64,000 nucleotides of DNA, taken from positions 136,302-200,301 of the forward strand of contig JBAYJV010000002.1 in NCBI GenBank assembly GCA_041664925.1, given 5' to 3'. The notes below the pieces were generated by a model that was not told the origin of the DNA, ran no database searches, and saw only the letters and a list, made by a program, of their open reading frames with translations. Every line of letters begins with the position of its first letter. Within the stretch, counting starts at the first letter, position 1. This DNA comes from Minisyncoccota bacterium. Lineage in GTDB: Bacteria > Patescibacteriota > Minisyncoccia > JBAYJV01. Position numbers and translations under genes: made by a program. Shown here one piece after another: positions 13,757 to 42,512 of the stretch.

Positions 13757-13842
13757 AATCTAATCTTAATATTTTTAACTCCAACTATCAAATTATCCAC
13801 AGATCCTATTGACTTTTAACTGTGGATAAGGTAGACTGTTAT

Positions 13843-23719: not shown

Positions 23720-24718
23720 TTATTCCTCTTTTTCCAATTTATTTTGAACCTGTCTAATTCGTTCTTCACGATTTCCACTTAAGAGAGTATAGGAAATCTC
23801 TCTTCTTTTTAAATCATTAATAATTTGTTCTTGGAATTTAATCCGATGGGTTTCGCCTGATCTTGAGCCATCGTCTTCATAGGGAATATCTATATCGCAA
23901 ACAAACCAAAGATCGTAGCGTTGTTTATTTTTTTTAGCAATTTTAATCAATTCTGGATGCGCTTTTCCATGATAATAACGGCTGAACATTTCGGTCGTAA
24001 TTGCGTTGGTATCAGAAAAGAAATATTTGTTCGCTTTTAAAATTAAAGCATCTTCTTTTGAAAGATGCTTTTTTGCTAGATCAAGTAATTGATCCATAGA
24101 AAGTTTTCCTGAGCTATCATGATATTTATCCCAATATTCTCTGCCAAGCTCCGGCATCCATTGGGTTTTATAAATTTTCCCTAATTCTCTTGCAATTGTG
24201 GTTTTTCCTGTTGACTCAGCTCCCAAAAAAACAATTTTTTTTACAAAACTTTCATATACGACAGGATGAAGAAATTTTCTGTATTTATAAGGATTTTGAC
24301 GAATCATTGTTCCGGATATGGGAACTAATTTACGTTTAATATCAACTATAATATTTTCTGCCCCGAGCGCTTTACTGACATGCTCTCCATACCATTCACT
24401 AGAAAAGAAATGAGTAATTTTAAATGGCACCGTCTTTAAAATATATTCATCGTGTTGTTTGGTAATCCGAGAATCAAGTCCGCACTCCGATGGTCCATTA
24501 TATCCCTTTATAACCGTAACTTGAGGATAGATTTTCTTTATCCAACCAGCGCGAATATTCAAAGGAATGTCGGTAATATCAGGACAATCATAGATAAGCA
24601 CAATAACTTTATCTGTCATTTTTAGTGCCGTATCAACCAAAAGTTGATGGCCTTTATGAAAAGGCGCAAATTTCCCCAAAACTAATCCTGTTGTAAGATT
24701 CTTGGATTTTTTTTCCAT
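23720..24718 (-). CDS. nadR: Bifunctional NMN adenylyltransferase / ribosylnicotinamide kinase (NadR-like, no HTH domain)
   Basis: N-terminal nucleotidyltransferase 'GKFAPFHKGH' (HxGH), C-terminal P-loop 'FLGAESTGKTT' typical of the RNK domain; immediately downstream of pnuC. Confidence 0.75.
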   Translation of the reverse strand: MEKKSKNLTTGLVLGKFAPFHKGHQLLVDTALKMTDKVIVLIYDCPDITDIPLNIRAGWIKKIYPQVTVIKGYNGPSECGLDSRITKQHDEYILKTVPFKITHFFSSEWYGEHVSKALGAENIIVDIKRKLVPISGTMIRQNPYKYRKFLHPVVYESFVKKIVFLGAESTGKTTIARELGKIYKTQWMPELGREYWDKYHDSSGKLSMDQLLDLAKKHLSKEDALILKANKYFFSDTNAITTEMFSRYYHGKAHPELIKIAKKNKQRYDLWFVCDIDIPYEDDGSRSGETHRIKFQEQIINDLKRREISYTLLSGNREERIRQVQNKLEKEE

Positions 24719-25263
24719 GATTTATACCAGTTATAAAATCCTGTACTGGCTAGGATTAAATAAATTATATATAAACCGGCGGTCAGATAGACGCCTTTAT
24801 AAGCATAAATGCCAATCGCTAAAACATCTACCAATATCCAAAGAACCCAGTTTTCGAAAACTTTCGTCATCAGAAATATCTGGGCAATTAAGCTCATAAC
24901 GGTTGTGAATGAATCTAGGTAGGGGATTGAAGCATCGGTAAAATTCTTCAAAGAGAAACCCATAAGCAATGATCCGAAGATAAGAAAAAGAAAGGCCTGA
25001 AGCCTTTCGGTATTATTAAGAACTCTAACTTTTAATTCTGTTTTTTTCTCTCCTCCATGTTTCCAAAGATACCAGCCATAGAAACCGGTTATTATATAGA
25101 AGACCTGCTCGCCCATATCAGCGTAAAGTTTAATCTGAAAGAACATCACCCCTAGGGCTATTACGCTAATAATGCCAATGGGCCAATTGAGGATCTTTTC
25201 TTTGGCTGCTAGGTAAACACACCAAGCTCCGAAGATAACACCGACAATTTCATAGATGTTCAT
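24682..25263 (-). CDS. pnuC: Nicotinamide riboside transporter PnuC
   Basis: 193-aa multi-TM protein with PnuC-like Trp/Gly pattern; classic pnuC-nadR pairing; promoter TTGACA-16/17-TATACT with a candidate NrtR box immediately downstream of the -10. Confidence 0.7.
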   Translation of the reverse strand: MNIYEIVGVIFGAWCVYLAAKEKILNWPIGIISVIALGVMFFQIKLYADMGEQVFYIITGFYGWYLWKHGGEKKTELKVRVLNNTERLQAFLFLIFGSLLMGFSLKNFTDASIPYLDSFTTVMSLIAQIFLMTKVFENWVLWILVDVLAIGIYAYKGVYLTAGLYIIYLILASTGFYNWYKSWKKNPRILQQD

Positions 25264-25332: not shown

Positions 25333-25432
25333 GTATAGCGCGAAAAAAAAGTTTGTCAATAGATAAGGGCCTTTTTTGTGAAAAAACCCCTTATTGTGGA
25401 TAAACCACTTGACAAGATTTTTCTTGGGAGTA

Positions 25433-25453
25433 TAATTGTACTAGATACACTAA
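25433..25453. promoter_or_regulatory. Candidate NrtR operator 2 (reverse complement TTAGTGTATCTAGTACAATTA), overlapping the -10/TSS of nrtR (autoregulation)
   Basis: Lies just after TTGACA(25410)-16-TATAAT(25432); same half-sites as site 1. Confidence 0.55.
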
Positions 25454-25465
25454 GTTATCAAATTA

Positions 25466-26148
25466 TGAAAAAAGAAGCTGTTCGGGAAAAAAAATATAAG
25501 TTTGCAGTCATTGCCACTGATGTTGTTTTATTTACCGTAAAGGATGAAAAACTCCAGGTCCTGCTTATTAAGATGAAAAAGAAATTATATAAGGAACACT
25601 GGGCGCTTCCCGGCGGTTTGATTAAATCTCAGGAATCATTGGAAACGGCAGCGAAAAGAAATTTGCTTGCTAAATCCGGTGTAAAAAATATTTATCTTGA
25701 GCAGCTCCGCACTTTTGGCGACATCAGCCGCGATCCTTTTGGAAGAGTCGTTTCGGTTGCTTATTTCGCCCTGATACCTTATAGCGGCATCAAATTGAAA
25801 ACCACCAAAAAATACGCCGGCATCAATTGGTTCCCGATTAAAAAACTTCCTGATTTAGCATACGATCATAAAAAAATGATTGCTTTGGCAGTTAAGCGAC
25901 TGAAAGCAAAACTTGGCTATACCAATATTGTTTATAGTCTTCTACCTCAGGAATTTTCCTTAAGCGATCTTCAGGAAACATACGAAATCATTTTAAATAG
26001 AAAACTCGACAAAAGAAATTTCCGCAAGAAAATCCTTTTATCAAAACTCCTGATAAGAACAAATAAAAAGGAAGGGGGAATGCCTCACAGGCCAGCAGTG
26101 ATTTATCGCTTCAAACAGCGCAGCCCCCAGATTATCGATCTGCTTTAA
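25466..26148 (+). CDS. nrtR: NrtR-family transcriptional regulator (Nudix domain + C-terminal winged HTH)
   Basis: Nudix-like 'EHWALPGGLIKSQESLETAAKRNLLAKSG'; C-terminal 'LPQEFSLSDLQETYEIILNRKLDKRNFRKKI...HRPAVIYRF' wHTH characteristic of NrtR. The ORF track starts at a GTG at 25378, but the ATG at 25466 follows a perfect promoter. Confidence 0.75.
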
Positions 26149-26345: not shown

Positions 26346-27215
26346 GTGAATGTAATGAAAAATCAATTTGAGATCGCCGGCGGAACTGTTCTGGGAACCA
26401 ATCATCAAAGATGCGGAAAAAATAATCAGGACGCTTTTTTATGGCAAATCACAGAAGATGCGGTTGTCATCGTTGTTGCTGATGGCTGCGGCTCTAAGCC
26501 ACATAGCGAAGTAGGAGCGAAAATCGGCAGCCAATTGATAGTTAATGAAATCATTACCAATCTATATGAGAATGGATTCCTAGATGCGCTTGGAAATGAT
26601 ATCGCCACAAATAACCTCTGGTCTTTAATAGAAAGAAATGTGCTGGAAAAAATCTACGCTCTGGCTCATTCAATGGACCGAGATCTTCATGCTCAGGCAA
26701 TTGCCGATTATTTTCTCTTCACAATGATCGGTGCCATCGCCACAAAAAATAAAACCATAATTTTTTCTCTTGGTGACGGCGCCTACATCATTAACGGAGA
26801 AGTAACACAAATCGGTCCCTTTCCTGACAATGCTCCTCCTTATCTCGCTTATCAATTACTGGACCCCCAGACTCTTGATATCGATCAAAGACTGCTTCAC
26901 ATCAAGACAAAGCGCATCATCGAAACACCTGAAATCAAAAATTTGCTCATCGGCACTGACGGCGTCTGCGATTTAATCAGACAGTCAGAAAAACAAATTC
27001 CCGGCAGCCAAGACCAGGTTGGTCAGATAAATTGGTTCTGGGAAAACGACAAATGTTTTTCCAATCCGGATATGATCAGACGGCGCTTGTCGATGATGAA
27101 CCGCCAAAGCTTAAGAATTGATGAAAAAAAACATCTCGCCAAAGAATCGGGAATTCTGCCAGACGACACAACTCTTGTGGTAATGAGGCAAAAAAAAGGA
27201 GGCGACAAGATGTGA
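26346..27215 (+). CDS. PP2C-family serine/threonine phosphatase-like protein
   Basis: 'GTNHQRCGKNNQDAF', 'VVADGCGS' metal-binding Asp motifs, C-terminal 'IGTDGV'; stop overlaps the kinase start by 4 nt. Confidence 0.7.
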   Translation: MNVMKNQFEIAGGTVLGTNHQRCGKNNQDAFLWQITEDAVVIVVADGCGSKPHSEVGAKIGSQLIVNEIITNLYENGFLDALGNDIATNNLWSLIERNVLEKIYALAHSMDRDLHAQAIADYFLFTMIGAIATKNKTIIFSLGDGAYIINGEVTQIGPFPDNAPPYLAYQLLDPQTLDIDQRLLHIKTKRIIETPEIKNLLIGTDGVCDLIRQSEKQIPGSQDQVGQINWFWENDKCFSNPDMIRRRLSMMNRQSLRIDEKKHLAKESGILPDDTTLVVMRQKKGGDKM

Positions 27216-29077
27216 ATGAAATCTATGTCAACGGACAACGCGTCCGCCTCAGTCAAAATAAACTCATCGGCCAGGGCGGCGAAGCGGAAATCTATGATTT
27301 GGGCAATGGCAAGGCGCTTAAGGTTTTCAAAACACCGGACCATCCCGACTTCCAGGGAAATCCTGTAGAACAGGCAATTGCCAGAGAGCGGATTTTGGAA
27401 CACCAACAAAAACTCAAGACATTTCCCAAAAATCTGCCCCACCGCATCATTGCACCCGAAGATCTGGCGTTTGATAGCACAACAAGGCAAATTGCCGGTT
27501 ATGTTATGCGCTATCTCAAACAAACAGAAGTGCTGATAAAGTATAGCGACCGCAGTTTCCGCGAACAAAGAATTTCCCAGGAAACGGTGACTAAGATTTT
27601 CCTTGATCTTTATAAAACAGTTTCGGAAGCCCATCGGACCGGCGTCGTCATCGGTGATTTCAATGATTTGAATGTCCTGGTCTCAGGGAATGAAGCCTAT
27701 CTGGTTGATGTTGACAGCTATCAGTTTGGGAAGTTCCTCTGCAAGCTCTTTACTGAGCGCTTTGTTGATCCCTTGCTTTGCGATCCAAAAGAAACAAGGC
27801 CAGTACTTGCTTTCCCTCATAACCAAAATTCCGATTGGTACGCTTTCGCTATCATGCTGATGCAATGTCTGCTTTATGTGGGACCGTACGGAGGAATTTA
27901 TAGGCCAAAAAAAGCTCCCCAGAAAATCGTAACGCAGGATTCAAGACCGCTTAAAAGGATTACGGTTTTTCATCCTGATGTCCAGTACCCAAAACCGGCT
28001 ATCCGCCTTGATGTTTTGCCGGATGAAATGCTTGAATATCTGCGCCTTACTTTCGAAAAAGACCAAAGGCGCGTTTTCCCAGAAAACCTGATTCAGAGTC
28101 TATGCTGGAAAAAATGCCTGGTCTGCGGCACAGAACATGCGCGCAATTCCTGTCCCCAGTGTTTCAAAGCTATTGTCAAAGAAATTGTCCATTTCAAAGG
28201 CCATGTTTCAGCAAGAGATATTTTCAGGACTAAGGGTATTATTTTAAAAGCAGGTCTTAACGGAAAAAACTTCCTTTGGCTCTATTACGAAGATGGTTGC
28301 TTTAAAAGAGAAAATGGCGCGATTGTCGCCCGAGAAAAACTCGATCCGCGAATGCGTTTCGGAATCAGTGACGGATCAACCCTGATCGCCAAAGGTGATG
28401 AACTTTATTTATTTAGGACAAACCAGGCGCCTGTCAAAACCAACATCGGAACTTTCCAAAACTTGCCAATGTTTGACGCCAATGAAAATCATATTTACTG
28501 GATAGAAAATAATCAACTGTTCCGTGATGGCCCATTTGGTAAGGAAGCAATCGGTAAAATTCTTGAAAACCAAACGATTTTCTGGGTTGGTCCAGAATTC
28601 GGATTCGGTTTCTATCGCGCAGGAAATCTAACCATCGCCTTTGTCTTCGACAAAGAAAAACTGGGCATCAATGACCAGGTAAAACTTCCACCCATTAAAG
28701 GACAATTAATTAGTTGCGAATGCTTCTTCGATAAGGAGCGCTGCTGGCTTTTGATCTCAACTCAGCAAAAGGGAAAAATCATTAACGATTGCGTGGTTAT
28801 TTTGAAAAATGGCGCTGTAGAATGCGTGGCGCAAGCAACTCAAGATGATGGATCCTGGCTGGGAACACTCAAGGGAAAATGCGCTTTCCGACAGTTCCTT
28901 TTCGCTCCGACTGATGAAGGTATTGTAAGAACGGAAATTGAACAGGGACAAATCGCCAAGATAAATCATTTTCCTGACACAGAGCCTTTTGTGGATAAAG
29001 ATTCACTCCTTTTTACGGACCAGAACGGCATTTATGCTGTTAACCGCCAGGATATCAAGCTCCTAAGAATCGATTAG
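27212..29077 (+). CDS. Atypical protein kinase (Gly-rich loop GQGGEAEIY, VAIK-like ALKVFK, GDFNDLN catalytic loop, DVDS) + Cys4 zinc ribbon + beta-rich C-terminal domain
   Basis: Kinase-fold motifs; 'CLVCGTEHARNSCPQCF' zinc ribbon; translationally coupled to the PP2C gene. Confidence 0.65.
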   Translation: MNEIYVNGQRVRLSQNKLIGQGGEAEIYDLGNGKALKVFKTPDHPDFQGNPVEQAIARERILEHQQKLKTFPKNLPHRIIAPEDLAFDSTTRQIAGYVMRYLKQTEVLIKYSDRSFREQRISQETVTKIFLDLYKTVSEAHRTGVVIGDFNDLNVLVSGNEAYLVDVDSYQFGKFLCKLFTERFVDPLLCDPKETRPVLAFPHNQNSDWYAFAIMLMQCLLYVGPYGGIYRPKKAPQKIVTQDSRPLKRITVFHPDVQYPKPAIRLDVLPDEMLEYLRLTFEKDQRRVFPENLIQSLCWKKCLVCGTEHARNSCPQCFKAIVKEIVHFKGHVSARDIFRTKGIILKAGLNGKNFLWLYYEDGCFKRENGAIVAREKLDPRMRFGISDGSTLIAKGDELYLFRTNQAPVKTNIGTFQNLPMFDANENHIYWIENNQLFRDGPFGKEAIGKILENQTIFWVGPEFGFGFYRAGNLTIAFVFDKEKLGINDQVKLPPIKGQLISCECFFDKERCWLLISTQQKGKIINDCVVILKNGAVECVAQATQDDGSWLGTLKGKCAFRQFLFAPTDEGIVRTEIEQGQIAKINHFPDTEPFVDKDSLLFTDQNGIYAVNRQDIKLLRID

Positions 29078-29155: not shown

Positions 29156-30217
29156 ATGAGCACGAAGAAAACAAAGGTCGCCCAACTCCCTCTTCCCAAG
29201 CACTATGATCCGCAGAATGCCACGAATGCCGATTATAGCGTTCGCGACATAACCCTGCTTCAAACCTGCGCTGAAGCCTGGCGCAAAACTCACAAAATTC
29301 ATCCTGTAAACGATGATGCTAAAAATGTTCAGATGCTTATCATTGATGACCAGGTTGATTTCAGCTTCCCGACAGGGTCCCTTTATGTGGCCGGTCGCTC
29401 AGGCACCGGCGCCATGGATGCCCATCAGAGACTTGTTGAATTCCTTTACCGATACCTCGACTTGATTTCCGGGATTACCTGCACAATGGATACTCACCTG
29501 CCTTATCAGATTTTCTATCCCAGCGCCCACCTTTTGCCGGACGGAAGCCACCCTCAACCCAACACCGTCATTTCTGCCAAGGATTATCGCGACGGAAAGT
29601 ACGAACCTAATCCGGCAATGGCTGCTCAGATTGGTTTGAGTGTGCTTGACCTAAGACGGCAATTCATCCATTACTGCGAACAATTGGAGAAAACCGGCAA
29701 ATACATGCTTTATCTCTGGCCCTATCACTGCATGCTCGGCTCTCCGGGACATCGCTTAGCTGGTGTTGTTGATGAAGTCCGCCTCTTCCATAGTTTTGCG
29801 AGAGGCGCAGCCAACATCCCGGCGATTAAGGGTGGCAATCCTTTGACCGAGCACTACTCGATTTTCTCACCAGAAGTGACAACTCTTTGGGACGGAAGAC
29901 CTATTCCTCAGGCGCAGAAAAATGAGAGACTGATCAAAACTCTCTTTGAAGCAGATGTGGTTATTATGGCGGGACTCGCGTCCAGCCACTGCGTCAAGGA
30001 AAGCATCGCCGATTTCCTGAAAGAAATCAAAGCCCAGGACGAATCCCTGGTAAAGAAAGTTTACATTCTTGAAGACTGCACTGCTGCAGTTGTCATTCCT
30101 TCGGGACCTGATTTTACCGACGATGCGAATAAGGCTTTGAAGGAATTTGAAAACGCCGGAATGCACGTTGTCAGATCAACTGACCTGATCGAATCCTGGC
30201 CTGAAATCAGGCTTTAG
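29156..30217 (+). CDS. pncA: Nicotinamidase-like cysteine hydrolase (PncA/isochorismatase family, long 353-aa form) - paralog 1
   Basis: 'MLIIDDQVDF' (Asp), 'LWPYHCMLGSPGH' (PncA WPxHC signature), 'KGGNPLTEHYSIF', 'IMAGLASSHCVKES' (catalytic Cys). Confidence 0.75.
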   Translation: MSTKKTKVAQLPLPKHYDPQNATNADYSVRDITLLQTCAEAWRKTHKIHPVNDDAKNVQMLIIDDQVDFSFPTGSLYVAGRSGTGAMDAHQRLVEFLYRYLDLISGITCTMDTHLPYQIFYPSAHLLPDGSHPQPNTVISAKDYRDGKYEPNPAMAAQIGLSVLDLRRQFIHYCEQLEKTGKYMLYLWPYHCMLGSPGHRLAGVVDEVRLFHSFARGAANIPAIKGGNPLTEHYSIFSPEVTTLWDGRPIPQAQKNERLIKTLFEADVVIMAGLASSHCVKESIADFLKEIKAQDESLVKKVYILEDCTAAVVIPSGPDFTDDANKALKEFENAGMHVVRSTDLIESWPEIRL

Positions 30218-31083: not shown

Positions 31084-31350
31084 TTGTTCTTTGACAAAAT
31101 CAGGGAGGGATTGTGAAAGCATAATCCCTCCCTTTTTCAAAAAATTATTGTCATTATTCTTAAAAACGTTTAAAATCATTGACAAAACGCAAATTTATTA
31201 TAGAATAGTATGTCAGAATGATAAAGCAATTTTAGAAAATTGAAGCGGAAAAATTCGGCTCTAATTTTCTAGCCTTGATTGGTATCGAGGCTAAAGTACC
31301 TAAACAAAGCTCATAAAAAAACAGCGATAAAGGACAAGGAGGTCCAAGAA

Positions 31351-32331
31351 ATGGAAAGAATCGAAAAGGTTGATTATTTGTCAGCTGCTGGTCTGGGAAA
31401 AACCTGTCAGAAAATGCAAGGTGTCAAACCTGCATCTCGAGATCGGATACGAATTGGTTTATTGATTATTGATCCTCAAAACACATTCTGCCACCCAGAA
31501 CTTGCAGAACTTCTGGTGCCTCATGCTTGGGAAGATAATACCAGATTGATGCATTTTATCTTAGATAATATTGCAAGAATCACAGCTATTGACGTTTCTC
31601 TTGACACGCACTCGCCAATGCAGATTTTTCACCCAATCTTCTGGGTGGATAAAGATGGCAATCATCCTGCACCTGGTACCGAGATTACTCACGAAAATGT
31701 TGTAAGAGGTATGTGGCGAATCAATCCAGAAGTTGGCTATAGATTCAGTAGAACTCAGAAATGGCTTGATGATTATGCTCTCTGGTATACCAGCGAACTT
31801 GAAAAAAGAGAAAAAAAACCTTTAATGATCTGGACTTACCACGGAATCTTGGGAAGTTTTGGTCATGCATTAGATTCATCTGTAGAATACGCAATCTTTG
31901 TTCATGAAATGGCCCGCCAGACAACAAGATTCACCATCCTTAAGGGCACTAATCCGTTTACCGAATACTATTCGATCGTTGGTCCGGAAGTAAGTAAAGC
32001 CCACGATGGATCAGTAATAGACAATTTCAACTTTGAGCTAATAAGACGATTCTTGGGGTATGATACTCTGATTATTGCTGGTCAATCTAGAAGCCACTGT
32101 GCTCCTGAGTCTTTAAATGACATTATGAATAATGCTGAGTCTGCTGATGAGTTTGCTCCGAGATCAAAACTAAGAATTGGTAATATTTACTTCCTTGATG
32201 ATTGTAGTTCTTCAATTCCTGGTTTTGAGAAACAGACAAATGAAGCCTTTGCGCGTTTCGCTGCTCGTGGTCTTCACATCGTCAAATCCACCACTCCGAT
32301 GGAGGAGTGGCCCAATATTGAGCTTAACTAA
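31351..32331 (+). CDS. pncA: Nicotinamidase-like cysteine hydrolase (PncA/isochorismatase family) - paralog 2
   Basis: 'LLIIDPQNTF', 'IWTYHGILGSFGH', 'KGTNPFTEYYSIV', 'IIAGQSRSHCAPES'; same architecture as paralog 1; RBS aaggagg before ATG 31351. Confidence 0.75.
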   Translation: MERIEKVDYLSAAGLGKTCQKMQGVKPASRDRIRIGLLIIDPQNTFCHPELAELLVPHAWEDNTRLMHFILDNIARITAIDVSLDTHSPMQIFHPIFWVDKDGNHPAPGTEITHENVVRGMWRINPEVGYRFSRTQKWLDDYALWYTSELEKREKKPLMIWTYHGILGSFGHALDSSVEYAIFVHEMARQTTRFTILKGTNPFTEYYSIVGPEVSKAHDGSVIDNFNFELIRRFLGYDTLIIAGQSRSHCAPESLNDIMNNAESADEFAPRSKLRIGNIYFLDDCSSSIPGFEKQTNEAFARFAARGLHIVKSTTPMEEWPNIELN

Positions 32332-32407
32332 AAGCTTTGAGGCGAGAGAAAAGCTTCTCGCCTCCTTTCTCCGACTACTTAGTAAATATTAGGTGCTCGA
32401 AGTAAGT

Positions 32408-32554
32408 TAGTTCTTTAAAAAATAAATATAAGGCTCTAATACAGGCTTATGCGAAACAAAGCGTAGCCCCAGTACCAGAATTCGCTTCGCTCATTCGGTA
32501 CAGGGCGTAAGAGTTTATAAGTTTCGCTTTGCTCAACAACAAACACTAACGGAG
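32408..32554 (+). promoter_or_regulatory. Conserved structured leader, copy a (…taaggctctaatacaNgcttatgcgaaacaaagNgtagccccNgtacc agaattcgcttcgctcattc ggtacagggcgtaag…ctaacggaggtg)
   Basis: About 90% identical over roughly 110 nt to copies at 35510-35662 (+) and 47385-47510 (-); hairpin cccNgtacc/ggtacaggg; ends in a shared RBS. Confidence 0.6.
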
Positions 32555-32560
32555 GTGCGC

Positions 32561-33205
32561 ATGGAAGGCAAGGTCAGAATCGCTGTTGGCGGTTCTGCCG
32601 CCAACCCCCCTCATCTCGGACATTTGCAAGTATTGAGATTCTTGATTCATACTAAGCAATTTGACAGAATCATCTGGATACCTTGTGGATCAAGAACCGA
32701 TAAAAAAGACCTTGTTGAAGCTTCCCATCGTCTCGCGATGGTAAATCGTTTTATGGAAAGTTTCACTCACAAAGAAATGGAAGTGCTTGATGTACGAGAC
32801 GATGATGTTAGAGGAGACAACACGCCGACAATTGAATGGCTTGAAAGATTAACCAGAGAATTTCCTGATGCGGAGATCTGGTGGTTTACAGGTTCCGATT
32901 CGATTATTCCTCAGAAAAAATTCGGCGGAAAATCTGAAATTGAAGCTTGCTGGATCAGGGGAGAGGAGTTATTGCGCAATTATAACTTCTTAATTCTTGT
33001 CAGACCAGGATATCCGATTCCAAACAATCTCAAGTTTCCAGGCAACATTAAAATTGTCAACACGAATCTTGAAGATGTTTCAAGTTCGGAAACGCGCGAT
33101 CTGATCAAAGAGCAGGATAGCGCCTTTGAAAGACTTGTGCCAAAAAAAGTTGCAGAATACATAAAAGAAAACCATCTTTATGGATGGAAAGGAGATGGAA
33201 AGTGA
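32561..33205 (+). CDS. nadD: Nicotinate/nicotinamide mononucleotide adenylyltransferase (NadD-like)
   Basis: 'GGSAANPPHLGHL' (HxGH) and 'SSSETRDLI' (ISSTxxR) nucleotidyltransferase motifs. Confidence 0.75.
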   Translation: MEGKVRIAVGGSAANPPHLGHLQVLRFLIHTKQFDRIIWIPCGSRTDKKDLVEASHRLAMVNRFMESFTHKEMEVLDVRDDDVRGDNTPTIEWLERLTREFPDAEIWWFTGSDSIIPQKKFGGKSEIEACWIRGEELLRNYNFLILVRPGYPIPNNLKFPGNIKIVNTNLEDVSSSETRDLIKEQDSAFERLVPKKVAEYIKENHLYGWKGDGK

Positions 33206-34449
33206 ATCGTCAGAAAGATAAACCGATCATTACAAGTCTGCTCGACTCTGACTTCTATAAATACACAATGGGACAAGAAAGTTTCCATCGCCACCCAACC
33301 GCACAGGTAACATTCAGCCTAACCAATCGAACAAGATCGGTAAGGCTTGCCGATTGTGTGGATATCGGAAGGCTCAGAGAAGAATTAGACGAAGTTCGTA
33401 AATTGGCTTTTACTATTTCCAATATCCATTACCTGCGCGGCACGGACGAATATGGACAAAGAATGTTTAGGGAAGATTACCTGGAACATTTGAAGGCTCT
33501 GCGACTAGGAGCTTATGACCTCGATGTGGTCGATGGTCAATTCCATCTGGAGTTTTCTGGTCCATGGTCTGTGGTAACTTACTGGGAAACTCTTGCTCTT
33601 TCGATTCTTACGGAACTTTACACTGAGTATCAATTGAGCAAAATGAGTCGACTTGAACAAGATGCTGTTTTAGCTCGCGGATATACTCAACTTCTGGAAA
33701 AAGTTAGGATTCTCAAGAGCTTCCCTGATATAACTCTTACTGATTTTTCATCTCGACGCCGAGCTTTTAGAGAATGGCAAGATTACGTTGTTAGTGTTCT
33801 TATTGAAGAGCTTCCTGGACAATTCCGTGGAACCTCAAATGTCCTTCTCTCAGACAAATATGGTACAGTGCCAATGGGAACTGCGGCTCATGAGCGCGAT
33901 ATGATTATAGCAGGAATTATGAGCGATACTGACGAAGGTATTCTTCGAACAATCCAAATGACACTCGAGAGTTGGTGGGAAGAATACGGAGAAGCACTTT
34001 CTGTCGCTCTACCAGATACGTTCGGCACAGATGCGTTTTTTAGGGCGATGACTGCTGAACAGGCAGCAAAATGGAAGGGATTGAGACAAGATTCAGGAAA
34101 TCCATTTACTTTTGTAGATAAAGTAATCGCTTTCTATAAGAGTCATGGAATCGATCCACAAAAAAAGCTTATAGTTTTTAGTGATGGTTTGGAAATTGAT
34201 AAAATTCTTGCTATCGCAGATTATTGTCGAGGGAAGATTAGGGCAACATTTGGATGGGGAACCAATCTTGGAAACGATCTCGGACTTCAGGCTCTATCCT
34301 TGGTTATTAAGGCAACCCGTGCAAATGGCAAACCACTTGTTAAACTCAGCGATAACCTCGCAAAGGCAATTGGTCCAAAAGACGAAATTGATCGTTACAA
34401 GCGTATCTTCGGATACGATGTGATACTCAACGAACAACCAAAGTACTAA
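33202..34449 (+). CDS. pncB: Nicotinate phosphoribosyltransferase (PncB/NAPRT family)
   Basis: 'SLLDSDFYKYTMGQ' N-terminal NAPRT signature; about 415 aa; start uncertain (ATG 33184 or GTG 33202 after RBS aaaggag). Confidence 0.7.
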   Translation: MNRQKDKPIITSLLDSDFYKYTMGQESFHRHPTAQVTFSLTNRTRSVRLADCVDIGRLREELDEVRKLAFTISNIHYLRGTDEYGQRMFREDYLEHLKALRLGAYDLDVVDGQFHLEFSGPWSVVTYWETLALSILTELYTEYQLSKMSRLEQDAVLARGYTQLLEKVRILKSFPDITLTDFSSRRRAFREWQDYVVSVLIEELPGQFRGTSNVLLSDKYGTVPMGTAAHERDMIIAGIMSDTDEGILRTIQMTLESWWEEYGEALSVALPDTFGTDAFFRAMTAEQAAKWKGLRQDSGNPFTFVDKVIAFYKSHGIDPQKKLIVFSDGLEIDKILAIADYCRGKIRATFGWGTNLGNDLGLQALSLVIKATRANGKPLVKLSDNLAKAIGPKDEIDRYKRIFGYDVILNEQPKY

Positions 34450-34642
34450 AGCTTTGGGGCGAGAGAGAAAAACTTTTCTCGCCCCCTTTCTCCAGTCACT
34501 TATTATTAGGTGATTGAAGGAAGTCTGTTAGTAAGCTCAGGACAAATCCTTCGACAGGCTCAGGATAAATCCTTCGATAAATTTGTGGTTAACATGTCTA
34601 ACCACTCAGGACAAGTCAGTTCTTTAAAAAATAGACAAGGAG

Positions 34643-35377
34643 ATGATAAGAGTGAAAACGATCATGATTAACGGCAAAGAAGTACCCGTAACAGGAGAAA
34701 GCGTTGACCAAGCTATTAATAGTATAATTTTTAAGGATTGGTTGGCATCATTGAATCGACTGTTCGTAATCAAATCAATCCATTTTCAATCAGTTGACAT
34801 TTCTCCTAGGACATCAAGGGTAAAATTTATCAAAGCTAAAATAGAATTAATTGATTGTGATGGAAGTAAATTTACGAACATCATTTTCATGCGTGGCGGT
34901 GCAGTTACAATTCTCTTTGTTATTCATGTGGATAAAGAAGAATTCACAATTTTGACTCGTCAGCCTCGTCTACCCTCAGGATCATTTAGACTATTGGAAA
35001 CTCCTGCCGGTACAATTGACACGAGCGAAACTGCTGTCAAAGTTGCCGTCAGAGAAATTTGGGAAGAAGTGGGTATTAAGATTCGCGAAAATCAATTAAT
35101 AGATCTAACTGCGCACTTTCATGAAAAACGCCATAAGGGTATTTATACATCACCTGGAGCATGTGATGAGTTCCTTCGAATCTTTCTCTGTGAAATCACT
35201 ATGACAGATGGTGAGTTGGAGCAATTAAGAGGAAAACTTACAGGACTTAGAGATGAAGGCGAAAGAATTACCTTGGAGGTTTTTCGCCTAAGAGAACTTC
35301 CTTTTGAAGCTCCTGATGCCAAATCTCTTGCCGCTCTAGCCTTGTATGATGCTTACATACGAGAGCACAGTACTTAG
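34643..35377 (+). CDS. Nudix hydrolase (ADP-ribose / NAD-derivative pyrophosphatase-like)
   Basis: Nudix box 'GTIDTSETAVKVAVREIWEEVGI'. Confidence 0.7.
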   Translation: MIRVKTIMINGKEVPVTGESVDQAINSIIFKDWLASLNRLFVIKSIHFQSVDISPRTSRVKFIKAKIELIDCDGSKFTNIIFMRGGAVTILFVIHVDKEEFTILTRQPRLPSGSFRLLETPAGTIDTSETAVKVAVREIWEEVGIKIRENQLIDLTAHFHEKRHKGIYTSPGACDEFLRIFLCEITMTDGELEQLRGKLTGLRDEGERITLEVFRLRELPFEAPDAKSLAALALYDAYIREHST

Positions 35378-35397
35378 TATAAAAGCACATAAAACAA

Positions 35398-35462
35398 GAG
35401 GCGACTTAAGTCGTCGCCTCCTTTCTTGGATGACTTAGAAAACTAAGTCATCGAAGTAAGTC
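35398..35462 (+). repeat. Identical ~65-nt junction module: terminator gaggcgacttaagtcgtcgcctc + hairpin ATGACTTAGaaaaCTAAGTCAT + cgaagtaag
   Basis: Exact second copy at 36828-36892; related modules at 32336-32400 and 34452-34520, all followed by AGTTCTTTAA. Confidence 0.7.
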
Positions 35463-35509
35463 CTCCGATAGATTCGATTTACTCACTACAAGCTAAACTC
35501 AGGACAAGT

Positions 35510-35662
35510 AGTTCTTTAACAATATAATATAAGGCTCTAATACAAGTTTATGCGAAACAAAGTGTAGCCCCGGTACCAGAATTCGCTTCGCTCATTCGGT
35601 ACAGGGCGTAAGAGCTTCTAAATTTCGTTTCACTCAACAAGAGTCTCTAACGGAGGTGTAAC
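35510..35662 (+). promoter_or_regulatory. Conserved structured leader, copy b
   Basis: See 32408-32554. Confidence 0.6.
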
Positions 35663-36826
35663 ATGCAAATAGTCTACACTGGAGAAAATCTTCCTAAAAA
35701 GATTGTCAAATCTATTTTTCTTGCCGGTCCAACGCCGCGATCAAAAGAAACGAATTCGTGGCGACCGGAAGCCTTAAGAATTCTCGAAGAGAAAGGTTTT
35801 AATGGAACAGTTTTTGTTCCGGAATTCAGAAATCGCGACAAAGAATACGCTGACGATATGGAAGAAAATACTATCTCTTGGGAAGAACAAGCTCTGAATA
35901 TGGCCGATTGTATTCTTTTCTGGATACCGCGAGATCTCAAAACCATGCCGGCTTTCACAACGGATGTTGAGTATGGCGAATGGTTTAAATCAGGCAAGAT
36001 TGTTTTGGGCGCTCCAAAGAATGCTCCCAAAATGAGCTATCTTTTGAAACGCGGACAGAAATATTACATTCCGCAGGCTACAACTCTTGAAAATACTATT
36101 GATATGGCCCTAGCTATGATTGGCAATGGCGCGCTGCGTGTTGAAGGAGAATGCCAGATACCATTACACATCTGGAAAACCGGATCTTTCCAATCGTGGT
36201 ATCAAGCCCAGATTCAAGCAGGCAATCGGCTGCACAGCGCCAAAGCAGAATGGGTATTCAGAGTTGGACCAAAGAAACAAATATTCTTCATTTGGATTCT
36301 CCATGTTGATATATATATCACTGCTGAAGAAAGACACAAGACCAATGAAGTTGTTATCGGCCGTCCCGACATTTCTACGGTCGCTCTGTATATAAGAGCT
36401 GATGACATTATGGATTCTGATATTGTTCTTATTAAAGAGTTTTGCAGTCCTGCTGCGACTGCCGATGGATATGTCTGGGAACCTCCCGGCGGCTCTTCAA
36501 TTAAAGGAGAGTACGATCCCCGAAAGTTAGCAGTAGATGAGGTTTTTGAGGAAACCGGACTTAAGATTAGCCCGGATAGAATCATTTTCAATGGCGCGCG
36601 GCAAATCTATGGAACCTTGTTGTCACATAAGGCATTTCTTTTCTCTGCGGAAATCACTAGAAACGAATTGGATTGGCTTATATCTCAAATTGGCATCGTT
36701 CACGGAGTAGAAAAAGATACTGAAAGAACATATGTGGAAATTGTCAAACTTCGAGATATTTTGAGCCAAGAACTTGTAGATTGGAGCGCATTAGGTATGC
36801 TTTTCGCTGCGCTCACAAAGAAATAA
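35663..36826 (+). CDS. Fusion protein: N-terminal nucleoside 2-deoxyribosyltransferase-like (NDT/Rcl-like Rossmannoid) domain + C-terminal Nudix hydrolase domain
   Basis: N-terminal 'IFLAGPTPRS...W...CILFWIP...EYGEWFKSGKIVLGAP' NDT-like pattern; C-terminal Nudix box 'GGSSIKGEYDPRKLAVDEVFEETGL'. Confidence 0.6.
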   Translation: MQIVYTGENLPKKIVKSIFLAGPTPRSKETNSWRPEALRILEEKGFNGTVFVPEFRNRDKEYADDMEENTISWEEQALNMADCILFWIPRDLKTMPAFTTDVEYGEWFKSGKIVLGAPKNAPKMSYLLKRGQKYYIPQATTLENTIDMALAMIGNGALRVEGECQIPLHIWKTGSFQSWYQAQIQAGNRLHSAKAEWVFRVGPKKQIFFIWILHVDIYITAEERHKTNEVVIGRPDISTVALYIRADDIMDSDIVLIKEFCSPAATADGYVWEPPGGSSIKGEYDPRKLAVDEVFEETGLKISPDRIIFNGARQIYGTLLSHKAFLFSAEITRNELDWLISQIGIVHGVEKDTERTYVEIVKLRDILSQELVDWSALGMLFAALTKK

Positions 36827-36827
36827 G

Positions 36828-36892
36828 CGCTTGAGGCGACTTAAGTCGTCGCCTCCTTTCTTGGATGACTTAGAAAACTAAGTCATCGAAGT
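36828..36892 (+). repeat. Junction module, exact copy of 35398-35462
   Basis: Identical sequence. Confidence 0.7.
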
Positions 36893-37016
36893 AAGAAGTT
36901 CTTTAACAAATAATCCTCCTTCGCCCCGGCTTGCCGGGGCTTCGGAAGGATGTAATATTTTCTAAATCTCGTTTCTCTCGGTAAGAAAATCTAACAAACA
37001 CTAACGGAGGTGTAAG

Positions 37017-37832
37017 ATGCAAGGAAAAATCGTCTATTCTGTTATTTTCCCCGAACCAGGTTCTCTTGGAAAAGAAAGGTCAGATGATGTCAGAAAATGG
37101 CTAGAAGAATTCTTGATCCCAGCTGGCATTGCAACTCTCTATGAAGACGAAGCTAATGCCTATCTGGTCGCAACTGGTGATGGTGGTCTCATAAGAGCTA
37201 TTCGTGAAAAACATAATAAAGGAAAGATTTTTGTCGGGGCTAACCGCGGAACTTTAGGTTTCTTACTAAATCCTATCCAGAAAATTAAAGATATCCCTTT
37301 GGATTTCAATGAATTACAACTAGTCGACCTTGATCTTATTCAGGTAACATTTATTCTAAAAGATGGCTCAAAAGTTGGACCATTTTTAGTGTTTAATGAT
37401 GTCATGTGCGGTACCAAACCCGCCGGCTGGATTAAATTCACTATTCAGGGATCATTGAGCTATTATCCTAACAGAACCTGCTGGGGAAATTGCGTTTTTG
37501 TGTCAACGCCTCAGGGAGCCACAGGACTGGCACTTAAAGCTCGAGGGACTGGAGCGGTTCTGCCACTTGATAGTAAAACCTGGTTTGTTGGCGGATTCGC
37601 GATCGGACCTTATCCTTGCGATATTGTTCAGCCTCAGAAAATCACGATTGAGGTTGAGTCCAGAGAGGATCCTATTTACGCTAATGCTGACGGACGTGCT
37701 AGAGAAGTTGAAAATGTCGCAAAAGTCATCGTTGAGCCAACAGATAAATCCGTAACCTTAGGATTCTTAAAAAGTATCGACTTTGCGGCACGAAGAACTC
37801 AATTAGCCCAAAAAACGGAAAGGGGTGAGTAA
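37017..37832 (+). CDS. nadK: NAD kinase-like (ATP-NAD kinase family)
   Basis: 'VATGDGGLIRA' (GGDG), 'NRGTLGFL' (NxGxxGFL), 'STPQGATGLALKARG' motifs. Confidence 0.7.
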   Translation: MQGKIVYSVIFPEPGSLGKERSDDVRKWLEEFLIPAGIATLYEDEANAYLVATGDGGLIRAIREKHNKGKIFVGANRGTLGFLLNPIQKIKDIPLDFNELQLVDLDLIQVTFILKDGSKVGPFLVFNDVMCGTKPAGWIKFTIQGSLSYYPNRTCWGNCVFVSTPQGATGLALKARGTGAVLPLDSKTWFVGGFAIGPYPCDIVQPQKITIEVESREDPIYANADGRAREVENVAKVIVEPTDKSVTLGFLKSIDFAARRTQLAQKTERGE

Positions 37833-37833
37833 A

Positions 37834-38799
37834 ATGACAACAAACTCGGCATCTCGCGTTGTAATCTTCACTACTGAGGCGTCGCGATATTTCGCCGAAC
37901 TAATTGCCCAAAGATTGGAAATTCCAATTACCGAAACCCATCGAAGAACTTTTGGTGGCGGTGAAAGATACTATCGTCTCGATATTGACGACAGAGGAAG
38001 CTTAGTTAATAAGGTTGCGATCATTGTAGGATCAACTCATACTGATGAAGATTTTCTTGAAATTGCAAGGATTGGCAGAACCTTAGCTTCATGCGGAACA
38101 TCACGGCGCATCTTCGTCATTCCTTTCTTTGGTTATTCGACCATGGAAAGAGATAAAAAGCCGGGAGAAGTTGTCACGGCAAAAGATTGCGCATGTATTC
38201 TTTCAAGCATACCCAATTCTGGGCTTGGTAATGTTTTTCTAATGATGGATTTGCACGAAGCTGGGTTGGTCCATTATTTTGAGGGTGACTGTGTTAGAAG
38301 AGAGCTTTATGCAGAATCTATTCTGGTTCCAGCTGCCATAGATCTTGGTCTTCGAAATTTCGTAATGGCGACCACCGATCTTGGCAGATCTGATTGGGTG
38401 GAAACATATGCCAAGAAACTCAAGGCAGGCGACATGGCTTTTGTTAGAAAAGCTCGCGATTACGAAATTACTAAAGTTCTTTGCGTTATTGGAGATGTTT
38501 TTGGCGAGATTCTCGTCCCATATGACGATATGATTAGAAGCGGAAGTACTTTCTTTAAGGCAATGCATGCTTATCTTGAAAAAGGAGCAAGTCAGTTTTA
38601 TCCGCTTTTAGGCCACTTAGCATTTAATGATGAATCTGTTATTCAAGAAATTGAAAACGATCCAACGATTGTCCATGTAATTGGCACCAACACTCATTCT
38701 ATGAGTCAGCATCCGTTGGTAAAACAATCTAAGAAAATCGAGGTTGTTGATGTGTCGCCGATTTTCGTAGAAGCAATCCAACAAATAATCGCAGTTTGA
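37834..38799 (+). CDS. prs: Ribose-phosphate pyrophosphokinase family protein (Prs-like; divergent flexible loop FGGGERY)
   Basis: 'IPFFGYSTMERD', 'MDLHEAG', 'VPYDDMIRSGSTF' align with Prs motifs (PYYGYARQDR, DLHA, DDIIDTAGT). Confidence 0.65.
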   Translation: MTTNSASRVVIFTTEASRYFAELIAQRLEIPITETHRRTFGGGERYYRLDIDDRGSLVNKVAIIVGSTHTDEDFLEIARIGRTLASCGTSRRIFVIPFFGYSTMERDKKPGEVVTAKDCACILSSIPNSGLGNVFLMMDLHEAGLVHYFEGDCVRRELYAESILVPAAIDLGLRNFVMATTDLGRSDWVETYAKKLKAGDMAFVRKARDYEITKVLCVIGDVFGEILVPYDDMIRSGSTFFKAMHAYLEKGASQFYPLLGHLAFNDESVIQEIENDPTIVHVIGTNTHSMSQHPLVKQSKKIEVVDVSPIFVEAIQQIIAV

Positions 38800-38809: not shown

Positions 38810-39799
38810 ATGTTTAAAAGACCACTGGAAGAGGTTGATGAAAGATTAATCCAAGAAGCAAAAGGTTTAGCTGTTGGCCGAAAACGCGTTTCAGTTGCAT
38901 TTTCTGGTGGCGTTGATTCTACGGTTGTGGTAACAATTCTCTGCCGTGCTTTTGGAGCTGAAAATGTTCTTGCGTTCTATCGCAATATTAGAAGTAATCC
39001 TCTACATGAAGCACATGTCTACGAATTACAAGAACTATTAGGTTTTAATCTTATGGCTGTTGATGCTAATCCAATTTACGACACAATTGTTGGTCAAGCT
39101 CGCGAATGGTTTCAAACACATGGCTACGAGTGGCATAACGAAAATCAACCGGGCACAGAAGAAAGCGGATTCACCAACGCATTCGCTTCTCTCAAGTCCC
39201 GCATCACTACTCCCTATATGGGATTTCTTGCTAAGGCTTGGGATGGTGGAAAAGGTATAATCTTTGGCACAGGAAATGCCGAAGAAGACGGACTTGTCCG
39301 CTACTTTGACAAGTATGGAGACGGAGCGGTTGATAATAATATTTTGAGTGGTCTAACAAAGATGGAAGTCAGACAGATTGCTCTTTATTACGCCAAGGTT
39401 TATGGCAAAGACGGTAAAGAAGCTCAAATTTTCAGAGCTATTGCTGAAAAGTTACCATCAGCCGATCTTAAAGCATGTGGAGATGTTCACAATGACGAGA
39501 GCGAACTGACTTTTTGGGCAAGAACCATGGGATACGATATTCAAATTTCCTATGGCGATTGCGAAAAAGAAGGCAATCTTGCTTGGGCGCTCAAACAAGA
39601 TCTTGATCACGGAGTCATAACCGGTAGCAAAAATCATTGGGGAAGCACTGGTCTTAGTTCATACCTTGACTACACAGATAAACAGATTAAGCTCATTGCG
39701 TTCCTGCGAAAAATTGAGCGCTCAACCAGGCATAAAGCTAATCCTAATATGCCTGGATTGTCGAGAGTTACTCTTAGGATGGAAGGTTACGTAGACTAG
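38810..39799 (+). CDS. nadE: NH3-dependent NAD+ synthetase (PP-loop ATP pyrophosphatase)
   Basis: 'VAFSGGVDSTVV' PP-loop; NadE-like length and layout. Confidence 0.75.
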   Translation: MFKRPLEEVDERLIQEAKGLAVGRKRVSVAFSGGVDSTVVVTILCRAFGAENVLAFYRNIRSNPLHEAHVYELQELLGFNLMAVDANPIYDTIVGQAREWFQTHGYEWHNENQPGTEESGFTNAFASLKSRITTPYMGFLAKAWDGGKGIIFGTGNAEEDGLVRYFDKYGDGAVDNNILSGLTKMEVRQIALYYAKVYGKDGKEAQIFRAIAEKLPSADLKACGDVHNDESELTFWARTMGYDIQISYGDCEKEGNLAWALKQDLDHGVITGSKNHWGSTGLSSYLDYTDKQIKLIAFLRKIERSTRHKANPNMPGLSRVTLRMEGYVD

Positions 39800-39810: not shown

Positions 39811-40164
39811 ATGACCGAAGAAACAGTGCTTCAGAAGGCAAGACGATTAAGAGGCGAAATTGCAGTACTTCAAGTCGACCTAGATGGAACAAGAAGAGAA
39901 TTAGATGCTCTAGAGAAATCATGTCGTCATGATTGGACAAATCCTGAGCGTATTGATGATCGAGTCATTTCAGGATATCAAGATCATGGTGATCCTCCAG
40001 GCACTATAGGAGTGGATCGCAGACTTCCCTGTTACGTGCCTGAACAAAGGTTTCCTCGATGGATGCGCAAATGTAGAACATGCGGATTAGCTCAAATCAC
40101 TGAAGATTTTGAAGAAAAAACAGGTTCCACAAAAGTTCCTTCATTTCCTGCTACGCAGCATTAA
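39811..40164 (+). CDS. Small protein with putative Cys zinc ribbon (CRHDW ... CRTCG)
   Basis: RBS aggaggagg; coiled N-terminus; last gene of the plus-strand island operon. Confidence 0.45.
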   Translation: MTEETVLQKARRLRGEIAVLQVDLDGTRRELDALEKSCRHDWTNPERIDDRVISGYQDHGDPPGTIGVDRRLPCYVPEQRFPRWMRKCRTCGLAQITEDFEEKTGSTKVPSFPATQH

Positions 40165-42053: not shown

Positions 42054-42512
42054 ATGGATATCAAGGCAAAATCGGCATACCCCGCAAGCGCATTAAGCAA
42101 TTTCGCTCCGCATTCTTTTGAGATAGATGGCGTTAAGTGCGCTTCGATGGAAGGGTTTCTTCAGTCGCTTAAAGTCACGGATCCATTCTTTCAAATAGAT
42201 GTTTGTCAGCTAGTTGGCTCTGATGCCAGACATTGGGGCGACGAACACAATGCCGAATGGAGAAAAGCTCAGACATTGTGGTGGCAAAGCAAAGCCTATG
42301 ACCGCCATAGTCCTGAATATCAAGAACTTCTTGACCGAGCTTTTGAGGCGCTTCTCAAAAACGAAGATTTCAGAAGAGCTCTCTTGATAACCAATCAAGA
42401 AACCCTGACTCATTCCATCGGTCAGACCGACCCGCACATTTCCATTCTTACGCAGGAAGAATTCTGTTCGCGCTTAATGAAAATGCGCAGTAGATTGCTT
42501 CTCAAAAAGTAA
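42054..42512 (+). CDS. NADAR (YbiA-like) domain protein
   Basis: 'LSNFAPHSFEIDGVKCASMEGFLQSLK' signature of the NADAR/DUF1768 family; terminator gaccgcc...ggcggtc + T-run follows. Confidence 0.65.
   Translation: MDIKAKSAYPASALSNFAPHSFEIDGVKCASMEGFLQSLKVTDPFFQIDVCQLVGSDARHWGDEHNAEWRKAQTLWWQSKAYDRHSPEYQELLDRAFEALLKNEDFRRALLITNQETLTHSIGQTDPHISILTQEEFCSRLMKMRSRLLLKK

Follow-up and report, generated by a model that had tools for sequence, protein, structure and literature searches.

Sequence and structure prediction indicate that the plus-strand gene at positions 35663–36826 of a 64,000-nt stretch of Minisyncoccota DNA (contig JBAYJV010000002.1; the whole stretch is hereafter called the window) is a real gene, and that it encodes a base-cleaving-type domain joined to an ADP-ribose-type pyrophosphatase module. 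This fusion is among the most regular members of the nicotinamide adenine dinucleotide (NAD) salvage cluster in bacteria of the candidate phyla radiation (CPR). Our leading, though still tentative, reading is that the fusion is a cytosolic bifunctional hydrolase that would recycle the by-products of NAD consumption, with its Nudix module acting on ADP-ribose, its N-terminal domain acting on a pyridine N-ribosidic bond, and the products feeding the Preiss-Handler route.

Identity and distribution of the fusion

35663..36826, plus strand: fusion open reading frame (ORF), 387 amino acids (aa) plus stop, ATG start

A ribosome-binding-type GGAGG at 35652–35656 lies seven bases upstream of the ATG, and the start lines up with those of the homologues in the alignment. 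NCBI holds an identical protein from a Candidatus Paceibacterota metagenome-assembled genome. The window also encodes Mfd, PriA, UvrA, HisRS, BipA, YchF and RsgA, and these chromosomal genes identify it as bacterial chromosome. The preliminary description of this gene, made from the sequence before any database search, proposed an N-terminal half resembling nucleoside 2-deoxyribosyltransferase (NDT) fused to a Nudix hydrolase, and this two-domain assignment is borne out by a Pfam PF15891 match in the first half and by NudF-type Foldseek and profile matches in the second. The fusion matched no family in PHROGs or PADLOC, and its sole match in NCBIfam was a sub-threshold Nudix.

The architecture is widespread. 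A word-index search returned 2333 homologues, the best 120 of which are all full length and all carry PF15891. When one genome per species was scanned, the fusion was found in at least 585 species genomes, mostly of Patescibacteria/CPR, with further carriers among Myxococcota, cyanobacteria, Planctomycetes and actinomycetes (Glycomyces, Spirillospora, Actinomadura, Dactylosporangium). With clustering at 50% identity, a profile of the N-terminal domain alone recovered 1974 clusters, of which 689 have an E below 1e-30; most of the matches listed are as long as the fusion (375–405 aa), and the longer or shorter matches of this representative search carry no extra Pfam domains. The family also extends to phages, including metagenomic huge phages in GenBank and Bacillus phage G, whose gp334 (AEO93593.1) is a full-length homologue with 48.5% identity over 385 aa. 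The preliminary description had allowed that the pairing might be peculiar to this genome; phages as well as at least 585 species genomes carry it, which indicates that it is neither unique nor accidental.

The 65 loci found in IMG/VR include 13 with the N-terminal domain alone and three with the C-terminal module alone (one unique sequence). In the N-domain-only loci L133–L140 and L143–L145 and the C-module-only loci L129, L130 and L147, all on large viral contigs, no partner half lies within 8 kb. Three viral loci (L141 8001–9297, L142 621–1917 and L146 8001–9297) have an N-domain coding sequence split by about 800 bp between query residues 137 and 112–149, an insertion that could be an intron, an intein or a homing-endonuclease insertion.

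The N-terminal domain

35663..36127, plus strand: N-terminal NDT/DrHyd-superfamily domain, aa 1–155 (Pfam, profile search, AlphaFold2, Foldseek)
35882..35884, plus strand: codon of E74, putative general acid in helix α3
35969..35971, plus strand: codon of E103, putative catalytic nucleophile in the motif TTNVE-x-G

Pfam assigns aa 16–119 to Nuc_deoxyri_tr2 (PF15891; E 2.8e-13, 50.5 bits against a cut-off of 30), and a profile search matches the domain to PDB entry 4mcj (E 3.6e-7). An AlphaFold2 (AF2) model of the domain alone reached a predicted local distance difference test score (pLDDT) of 86.5, and with it Foldseek ranked 4mcj, an entry annotated as a putative nucleoside deoxyribosyltransferase, best (E 1e-8, TM-score 0.72), followed by YtoQ, the CMP hydrolase MilB, the NDT of the cyanobacterium C. 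thermalis and BlsM, with TIR domains more distant. The model thus has the three-layer Rossmannoid fold of NDT, MilB and Rcl. With the glycosidases of the NDT superfamily as a group (4mcj, the MilB/BlsM CMP hydrolases, Rcl/DNPH1 and NDTs), the domain further shares a FLAGP loop after strand 1, the putative acid in α3, and, where the helix following strand 4 begins, a nucleophile-type Glu that is followed by G-K. It differs from them in falling below the threshold of the classical NDT model PF05014 (E 0.023, 15.3 bits against a gathering score of 28.8) and in carrying the extra invariant residues W33, R34, W73, W87 and R90. Structures of the CD38 type were absent from the Foldseek top 50, and the ADP-ribosyl cyclase (ARC) family PF02267 gave no Pfam match at E up to 0.1.

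Residue conservation was assessed across 211 full-length homologues with 37–62% identity to the query, the set to which all such counts below refer. E74, D82, R90 and E103 are invariant, and W33, W73 and W87 are kept in at least 98%. Whether this half retains the NDT nucleophile had been left to alignment by the preliminary description; none of the 211 homologues lacks either the putative nucleophile E103, within TTNVExG, or the putative acid E74. The segment TTNVE-x-G...SGK corresponds to the NDT nucleophile motif D-x-GT-x-x-E-x-G...GKP, and E103 pairs with the GYELG Glu of DNPH1 in a weak and provisional hhalign alignment. The likening of E74 to NDT D72 and Rcl D69 is by motif alignment alone, as hhalign sets E74 opposite a gap. 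Four conserved basic positions, R26 (98%), R34 (99%), R90 (100%) and K/R112 (99%), would fit a phosphorylated substrate. At codon 35963–35965 the window copy has Asp101, a position that is Asn in 209 of the 211 homologues.

The linker and the Nudix module

36128..36223, plus strand: helical linker, aa 156–187 (AF2 secondary structure), with conserved R159, W171, F176, W179 and G187-N188
36224..36397, plus strand: beta-sheet subdomain, aa 188–245, counterpart of the N-terminal domain of ADP-ribose pyrophosphatases (Foldseek, AF2)
36398..36823, plus strand: Nudix fold proper, aa 246–387 (Pfam, profile search, Foldseek)
36443..36445, plus strand: TGC codon of Cys261
36491..36562, plus strand: divergent Nudix box, aa 277–300 (sequence, conservation)

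The full-length AF2 model, built on 30 homologues, has a pLDDT of 87.9. In Pfam the NUDIX family covers aa 251–307 at 20.6 bits, 0.5 bit under the 21.1 cut-off, which some homologues exceed. A profile search against the PDB matched NudK (with an alignment that begins at aa 228), ADPRase and NUDT5, and Foldseek aligned about 197–202 columns to the 203-aa NudF of Klebsiella and E. coli (E 1e-11), with NudK and NUDT5 also found. The AF2 strands at 189–244 match the N-terminal beta subdomain of NudF. This alignment over some 200 columns to complete ADP-ribose pyrophosphatases indicates that the C-terminal half is a whole two-part ADP-sugar-pyrophosphatase module and not a Nudix box alone.

NudF, NudK and human NUDT5 are the best structural and profile matches for aa 185–387, beta subdomain included, and share with the fusion the glutamates of the Nudix helix and a downstream loop Glu. 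In the homologues these correspond to E293 (208/211), E296 (204/211), E297 (208/211) and the loop residue E354, so that all four are kept in 97–99%; G299 is also conserved. Neither the Gx5E Glu nor the Arg of RE is kept, positions 283 and 292 being variable, and the loop of the box has one extra residue; together these departures explain the sub-threshold Pfam score. The fusion is also only 11–18% identical to NudF, NudK and NUDT5, and has invariant residues of its own (R313-Q314, H322 and D373-W374). Overall, both halves look catalytically competent from their conserved residues. The Cys261 and Asp101 of the window copy are each a single-base change from the consensus codon, and may be real variants or assembly errors.

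Genomic context

23720–24718, minus strand: nadR-like gene, which with pnuC spans 23720..25263, divergent from and upstream of nrtR
24682–25263, minus strand: pnuC, divergent from nrtR
25378..26148, plus strand: NrtR (Nudix plus NrtR winged helix), heading the plus-strand cluster
26346–29077, plus strand: PP2C phosphatase and 621-aa kinase-like protein, cluster members after nrtR
29156–30217 and 31279–32331, plus strand: long nicotinamidase-like paralogues, flanking an unknown 277-aa ORF
32555–33205, plus strand: nadD
33184–34449, plus strand: pncB
34643..35377, plus strand: stand-alone canonical Nudix, YffH/AdpP-like, 244 aa
37017–37832, plus strand: NAD kinase
37825–38799, plus strand: phosphoribosyl pyrophosphate (PRPP) synthetase, prs
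38810–39799, plus strand: NAD synthetase, nadE

In the window the fusion gene sits inside a cluster with the order NrtR, PP2C, kinase-like, nicotinamidase-like, 277-aa ORF, nicotinamidase-like, NadD, PncB, Nudix, fusion, NAD kinase, Prs, NadE. The two nicotinamidase-like paralogues, of 350 aa and 33% mutual identity, have no significant Pfam match; they carry the motifs DDQVDF, MDTH, WPYHC and SSHCV, and on this sequence evidence are probably long-form PncA enzymes. Two further ORFs lie beyond the cluster. Directly after nadE, a 117-aa ORF (39811–40164) has a weak zinc-ribbon-like match and a homologue in only one other locus, and about 2 kb downstream of the NAD genes an ORF at 42054–42512 very strongly matches the phage T4 gp30.3 family PF08010 (E 8e-55), although the DNA is bacterial chromosome.

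Context in other genomes was sampled by tblastn at 80 species-genome loci (51 low-GC and 29 high-GC), to which two loci fetched by exact protein were added for a total of 82. One or more Preiss-Handler/NAD genes lie within 10 kb of the fusion in 25 of the 51 low-GC loci, in which pncB was counted at 19, nadE at 17, nadD-type nicotinamide mononucleotide (NMN) adenylyltransferase and pncA at 15 each, nadK at 14 and prs at five. Across all 82 loci, NrtR-like proteins were found at 17, long nicotinamidase-like proteins at 13, radical SAM proteins at eight, ADP-ribosylglycohydrolase (ARH) at seven and His_Phos_1 phosphatase at five. The immediate neighbour of the fusion is pncB at seven loci, pncA at five, His_Phos_1 at four and ARH at three. 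At the high-GC loci, the neighbours that are shared reflect lineage-specific synteny only.

Several other genes recur around the fusion in CPR genomes. His_Phos_1, a small radical-SAM protein and ADP-ribosylglycohydrolase stand beside it in L001 (9320–12317), L005, L013, L020, L024, L046 and L047. In several genomes the NAD cluster begins with a PP2C gene paired with one for a 577–621-aa protein that weakly resembles kinases in a LanL-like kinase region (L001 1–2420), and in the Moranbacteria genome L002 such a pair directly precedes the fusion (5235–7851); kinase-like matches also occur in the viral loci L109, L110, L117, L118, L120 and L144. In L002, moreover, HEPN_AbiV, SocA/Panacea, KilA-N and Fic genes form an inserted island that separates the fusion from pncB/nadE (9344–14564).

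The viral loci show a NrtR/NadM-type Nudix nearby in 9–11 cases, and long nicotinamidase-like homologues are near the fusion in three. Other recurrent neighbours on viral contigs are vWA/Ro60 proteins and homing endonucleases, and in phage G the gp334 gene lies between DNA polymerase III genes. Several IMG/VR contigs with the fusion encode CoaD (as in L083 15088–15717; TIGR01510, E 9e-52) or a peptidoglycan transglycosylase (as in L097 4925–6610), which suggests that some IMG/VR "viral" contigs are misclassified CPR chromosome fragments. The claim of phage carriage therefore rests on phage G and the GenBank huge-phage records.

A proposed role in recycling NAD by-products

In the recycling reading that we favour, the Nudix module would take free ADP-ribose, or some ADP-X compound very similar to it, and convert it to AMP and ribose-5-phosphate. 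The N-terminal domain would use E103 to attack the C1′ of a 5′-phosphorylated pyridine riboside, either NMN or, upstream of the Nudix step, NAD. Nicotinamide would be released by this attack, and ribose-5-phosphate would follow once the ribosyl-enzyme is hydrolysed; in a variant of the scheme, nicotinate might accept the ribosyl group in a base exchange. Nicotinamide would enter the nicotinamidase(s) and PncB, ribose-5-phosphate would be converted by Prs to the PRPP that PncB needs, and NadD, NadE and NadK would complete the loop. Whichever domain acted first on NAD, the net products would be the same, namely nicotinamide, AMP and ribose-5-phosphate. The presence of the nucleoside monophosphate (NMP) glycosidases MilB and BlsM among the nearest structures of the N-terminal domain is in favour of such chemistry. 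The preliminary description had likewise proposed that NAD or ADP-ribose is split into salvageable pieces, and here the neighbourhood of nadD, pncB, Nudix, fusion, nadK, prs and nadE fits, as does that of about half of the low-GC loci; the proposed function draws on context and fold.

Parts of this scheme have precedents. The conversion of ADP-ribose to ribose-5-phosphate and on to PRPP has been given as the rationale for ADP-ribose pyrophosphatases beside prs in NrtR-linked clusters (PMC2330246), and in the pyridine nucleotide cycle the NMN glycohydrolase of E. coli still awaited a gene in 2005 (PMC1249556). CD38, of the same fold class, is reported both to hydrolyse NMN and to exchange its base to give nicotinate mononucleotide (NaMN) (PMC11903787). 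A more specific version of the recycling reading, which we consider possible but doubtful, is that the N-terminal domain supplies the glycohydrolase that acts on NMN (or NAD) in the six-step pyridine nucleotide cycle, or else exchanges bases as CD38 does (NMN + nicotinate to NaMN), and is physically coupled to ADP-ribose hydrolysis. In genome-reduced CPR bacteria and huge phages, one protein would then feed both NMN left by DNA ligase and ADP-ribose left by ADP-ribosyl transfer back into the Preiss-Handler route.

Among known systems, the fusion resembles NadM-Nudix (NMN adenylyltransferase/ADP-ribose pyrophosphatase) and other ADP-ribose pyrophosphatases of NrtR-linked clusters, which also join a Nudix of this type to a second NAD-metabolic activity, lie beside prs and salvage genes, and follow the same logic from ADP-ribose to PRPP (PMC2330246). 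It differs from NadM-Nudix in that the partner has an N-glycosidase fold instead of an adenylyltransferase, and in its divergent Nudix box. With CD38/ADP-ribosyl cyclase acting on NMN it has in common the broad fold class and a putative Glu-based ribosyl transfer on pyridine nucleotides (PMC11903787, PMC9503650), but the N-terminal domain has no detectable sequence similarity to CD38 in Pfam and no top-ranked structural similarity in the Foldseek top 50.

Several observations weigh against the recycling reading. The fusion family is known from computation alone, and an enzyme that cleaves NAD or NMN beside the genes for NAD synthesis could set up a futile cycle. None of the 29 high-GC loci, which come from actinomycetes and Myxococcota, has a NAD gene or a conserved partner nearby, and the common phage and viral neighbours are genes of DNA and nucleotide metabolism (dNMP-kinase-like, dCMP deaminase, 5′-3′ exonuclease). 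Upstream of the fusion, there is no NrtR-box-like site within three mismatches. The Nudix box diverges from the GX5EX7REUXEEXGU consensus, and the proline typical of ADP-ribose pyrophosphatases is absent after it, with positions 313–318 reading R-Q-x-x-x-T across the homologues; such enzymes reportedly have a conserved Pro about 16 residues after the Nudix box, in an account attributed to Dunn et al. 1999. The window copy also carries R261C at a near-invariant Arg (208 of 211 homologues, in the motif EFRSP), by which its Nudix half may be weakened. Finally, a canonical stand-alone Nudix adjoins the fusion, so ADP-ribose hydrolysis by the fusion may be redundant.

Alternative explanations

The same structural neighbours admit a different order of chemistry, in which ADP-ribose is dismantled sequentially: the Nudix module would give AMP and ribose-5-phosphate, and the N-terminal domain, as an AMP (NMP) phosphoribohydrolase of the LOG/PpnN-, Rcl- or MilB-like kind, would give adenine and a second ribose-5-phosphate for PRPP. 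The NMP N-glycosidases MilB and BlsM are among the nearest structures, the conserved Arg/Lys residues suit a 5′-phosphate, prs and pncB are nearby, fusions of consecutive steps are common, and CPR bacteria catabolise AMP. We nevertheless judge this route unlikely, as the fusion adjoins nicotinamidases and not adenine salvage genes, with no apt seen in the loci, AMP is valuable to organisms without purine synthesis, and the viral stand-alone N-terminal domains have no Nudix partner within 8 kb. A (deoxy)nucleotide pool enzyme without any NAD link, in which Nudix would act on (d)NDP/(d)NTP or an NDP-sugar and the NDT/Rcl-like half would hydrolyse or transglycosylate the (d)NMP or nucleoside so formed, cleaning up or rebalancing the pools, is in our view a little harder to credit. 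It draws on the activity of the classical fold members NDT and Rcl on 2′-deoxyribosides or dNMPs, on the viral loci with a dNMP-kinase-like gene, dCMP deaminase, 5′-3′ exonuclease and DNA polymerases beside the fusion, and on the high-GC genomes that show no NAD link. Yet the Nudix module has the two-domain build of ADP-sugar enzymes and is not MutT-like, the CPR clustering with pncA, pncB, nadE, nadD and nadK is strong, and some of the "viral" contigs, with their CoaD and transglycosylase genes, look like CPR chromosome fragments.

A role in conflict or signalling deserves attention because it is the published reading for phage G gp334, the full-length homologue described above. As an ARC-type enzyme, the N-terminal domain would act on NAD(P)+ as a glycohydrolase or cyclase, either to make ADP-ribose-derived signals resembling cyclic ADP-ribose or nicotinic acid adenine dinucleotide phosphate or to deplete NAD, and the Nudix module would degrade the product as a "toggle". 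The occurrence of the family in huge phages is in line with this, as are the toxin-antitoxin and abortive-infection genes (HEPN_AbiV, SocA_Panacea, Fic) beside the fusion in the Moranbacteria locus. However, PF02267 goes undetected, the Foldseek top 50 contains NDT, MilB and YtoQ but no CD38 or cyclase, no PADLOC defence family is matched, and the fusion lacks a conserved sensor or effector partner; what is chiefly conserved around it is housekeeping NAD salvage, and the gene is single-copy in many free-living bacteria. We therefore hold the ARC-type role to be just as unlikely as AMP cleavage. Least probable of all, and in our estimate very much so, is that the N-terminal domain is a non-catalytic ligand sensor with allosteric control of the ADP-ribose pyrophosphatase. 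DrHyd, TIR and SLOG domains can serve as nucleotide sensors (PMC9503650), but D82 and the two putative catalytic glutamates, nucleophile and acid, are invariant in all 211 homologues, and stand-alone N-terminal domains exist.

Putative transcription signals around the fusion gene

35398..35460, plus strand: terminator-like hairpin plus second palindrome, ending the upstream Nudix gene, 63 nt
35501..35528, plus strand: promoter-like site AGGACA-16-TATAAT, 10/12 matches (the region overall is not enriched over shuffles)
35509..35658, plus strand: leader copy, 88% identical to 32408–32557 upstream of nadD
36833..36895, plus strand: terminator-like module ending the fusion gene, 63 nt, identical to 35398–35460
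47381–47513, minus strand: third long leader copy, before unrelated small ORFs without Pfam match
25312–25332 (plus), 25433–25453 (minus), 26176–26196 and 26244–26264: NrtR-box-like 21-mers TTAGTGT-N7-ACAATTA, in the pnuC/nrtR divergon and upstream of the PP2C gene

With a promoter-like site and flanking terminator-like modules, the fusion gene appears to form its own transcription-type unit. Its leader is one of three long copies that are 87–90% identical, and partial copies at 34604–34633 and 36957–37016 precede the Nudix and nadK genes. The module consists of a hairpin, then a TAAGAG-TTCTAAAT-TCGTTTC-CTC...AAGA tract and a strong ribosome-binding site, and its fold z-score is −2.3; the copy before the small ORFs has two more hairpin-plus-tract units in tandem. 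Rfam searches of the whole window at gathering thresholds and of 32200–37100 at E up to 5 left the leader unmatched, returning two tRNAs and two chance small-RNA matches, and identity with a known riboswitch was rejected on these grounds. The third copy, before unrelated small ORFs, likewise led us to reject a NAD-specific reading of the leader. The preliminary description had spoken of the gene's own copy of a conserved structured leader: the copy is present, as its 88% identity to the nadD leader attests, but conservation beyond this genome found no support when four intergenic leaders were compared by blastn with 147 related loci, which gave one 28-nt match at chance level only. From its sequence, the leader is best described as a genome-specific repeated promoter and 5′-untranslated-region module.

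The NrtR operator is a 21-bp palindrome with a GT-N7-AC core (PMC2330246). The positions of the 21-mers listed above suggest that NrtR controls the operon of the PP2C, kinase-like and nicotinamidase-like genes. The link between the fusion and nrtR is positional, the two genes being 9.5 kb apart in the window. A GACTTAG-N4-CTAAGTC palindrome was considered as an NrtR operator and rejected, as it is found only in the two identical terminator modules.

Relation to earlier work and significance

The preliminary description did not recognise this fusion from textbook NAD metabolism, but the literature has noted it before. Phage G gp334 (AEO93593.1) is already cited as an "ARC-clade DrHyd" domain, and jumbo-phage proteins combining ARC-clade DrHyd and Nudix have been described by Iyer et al. 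(2021, 2022). As gp334 was flagged computationally before, the fusion architecture itself is not new. The phage protein and the window fusion belong to the same family, with the same full-length architecture, and both are known from computation alone. The published reading of gp334 is a generator and degrader of NAD-derived signals in phage-host conflict, whereas the window gene is chromosomal and lies in a Preiss-Handler salvage cluster of a CPR bacterium; in contrast to the ARC-clade placement, the closer matches of the N-terminal domain in Pfam and Foldseek are NDT, MilB and YtoQ, not cyclases of the CD38 type. A literature search covering PF15891, YtoQ, NrtR with deoxyribosyltransferase, and a review of the Nudix clan returned nothing on the fusion. 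In the literature searched, neither its regular membership of the CPR Preiss-Handler cluster nor its reading as a housekeeping recycler of NAD by-products was found.

The fusion family is large, with at least 585 species genomes and 689 N-domain clusters, and both of its active sites are strictly conserved. Its occurrence in huge phages makes the family relevant to a topic of current interest, namely how NAD is depleted and reconstituted during infection, and the cultivable Bacillus phage G offers an experimentally tractable source of an orthologue. If the fusion cleaves the nicotinamide-ribose bond, it would provide a gene for the orphan NMN/NAD glycohydrolase activity and would explain the adjacency of nicotinamidases and a dedicated Prs. 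The fusion probably fills a real step in the upkeep of the NAD pool in salvage-dependent CPR bacteria.

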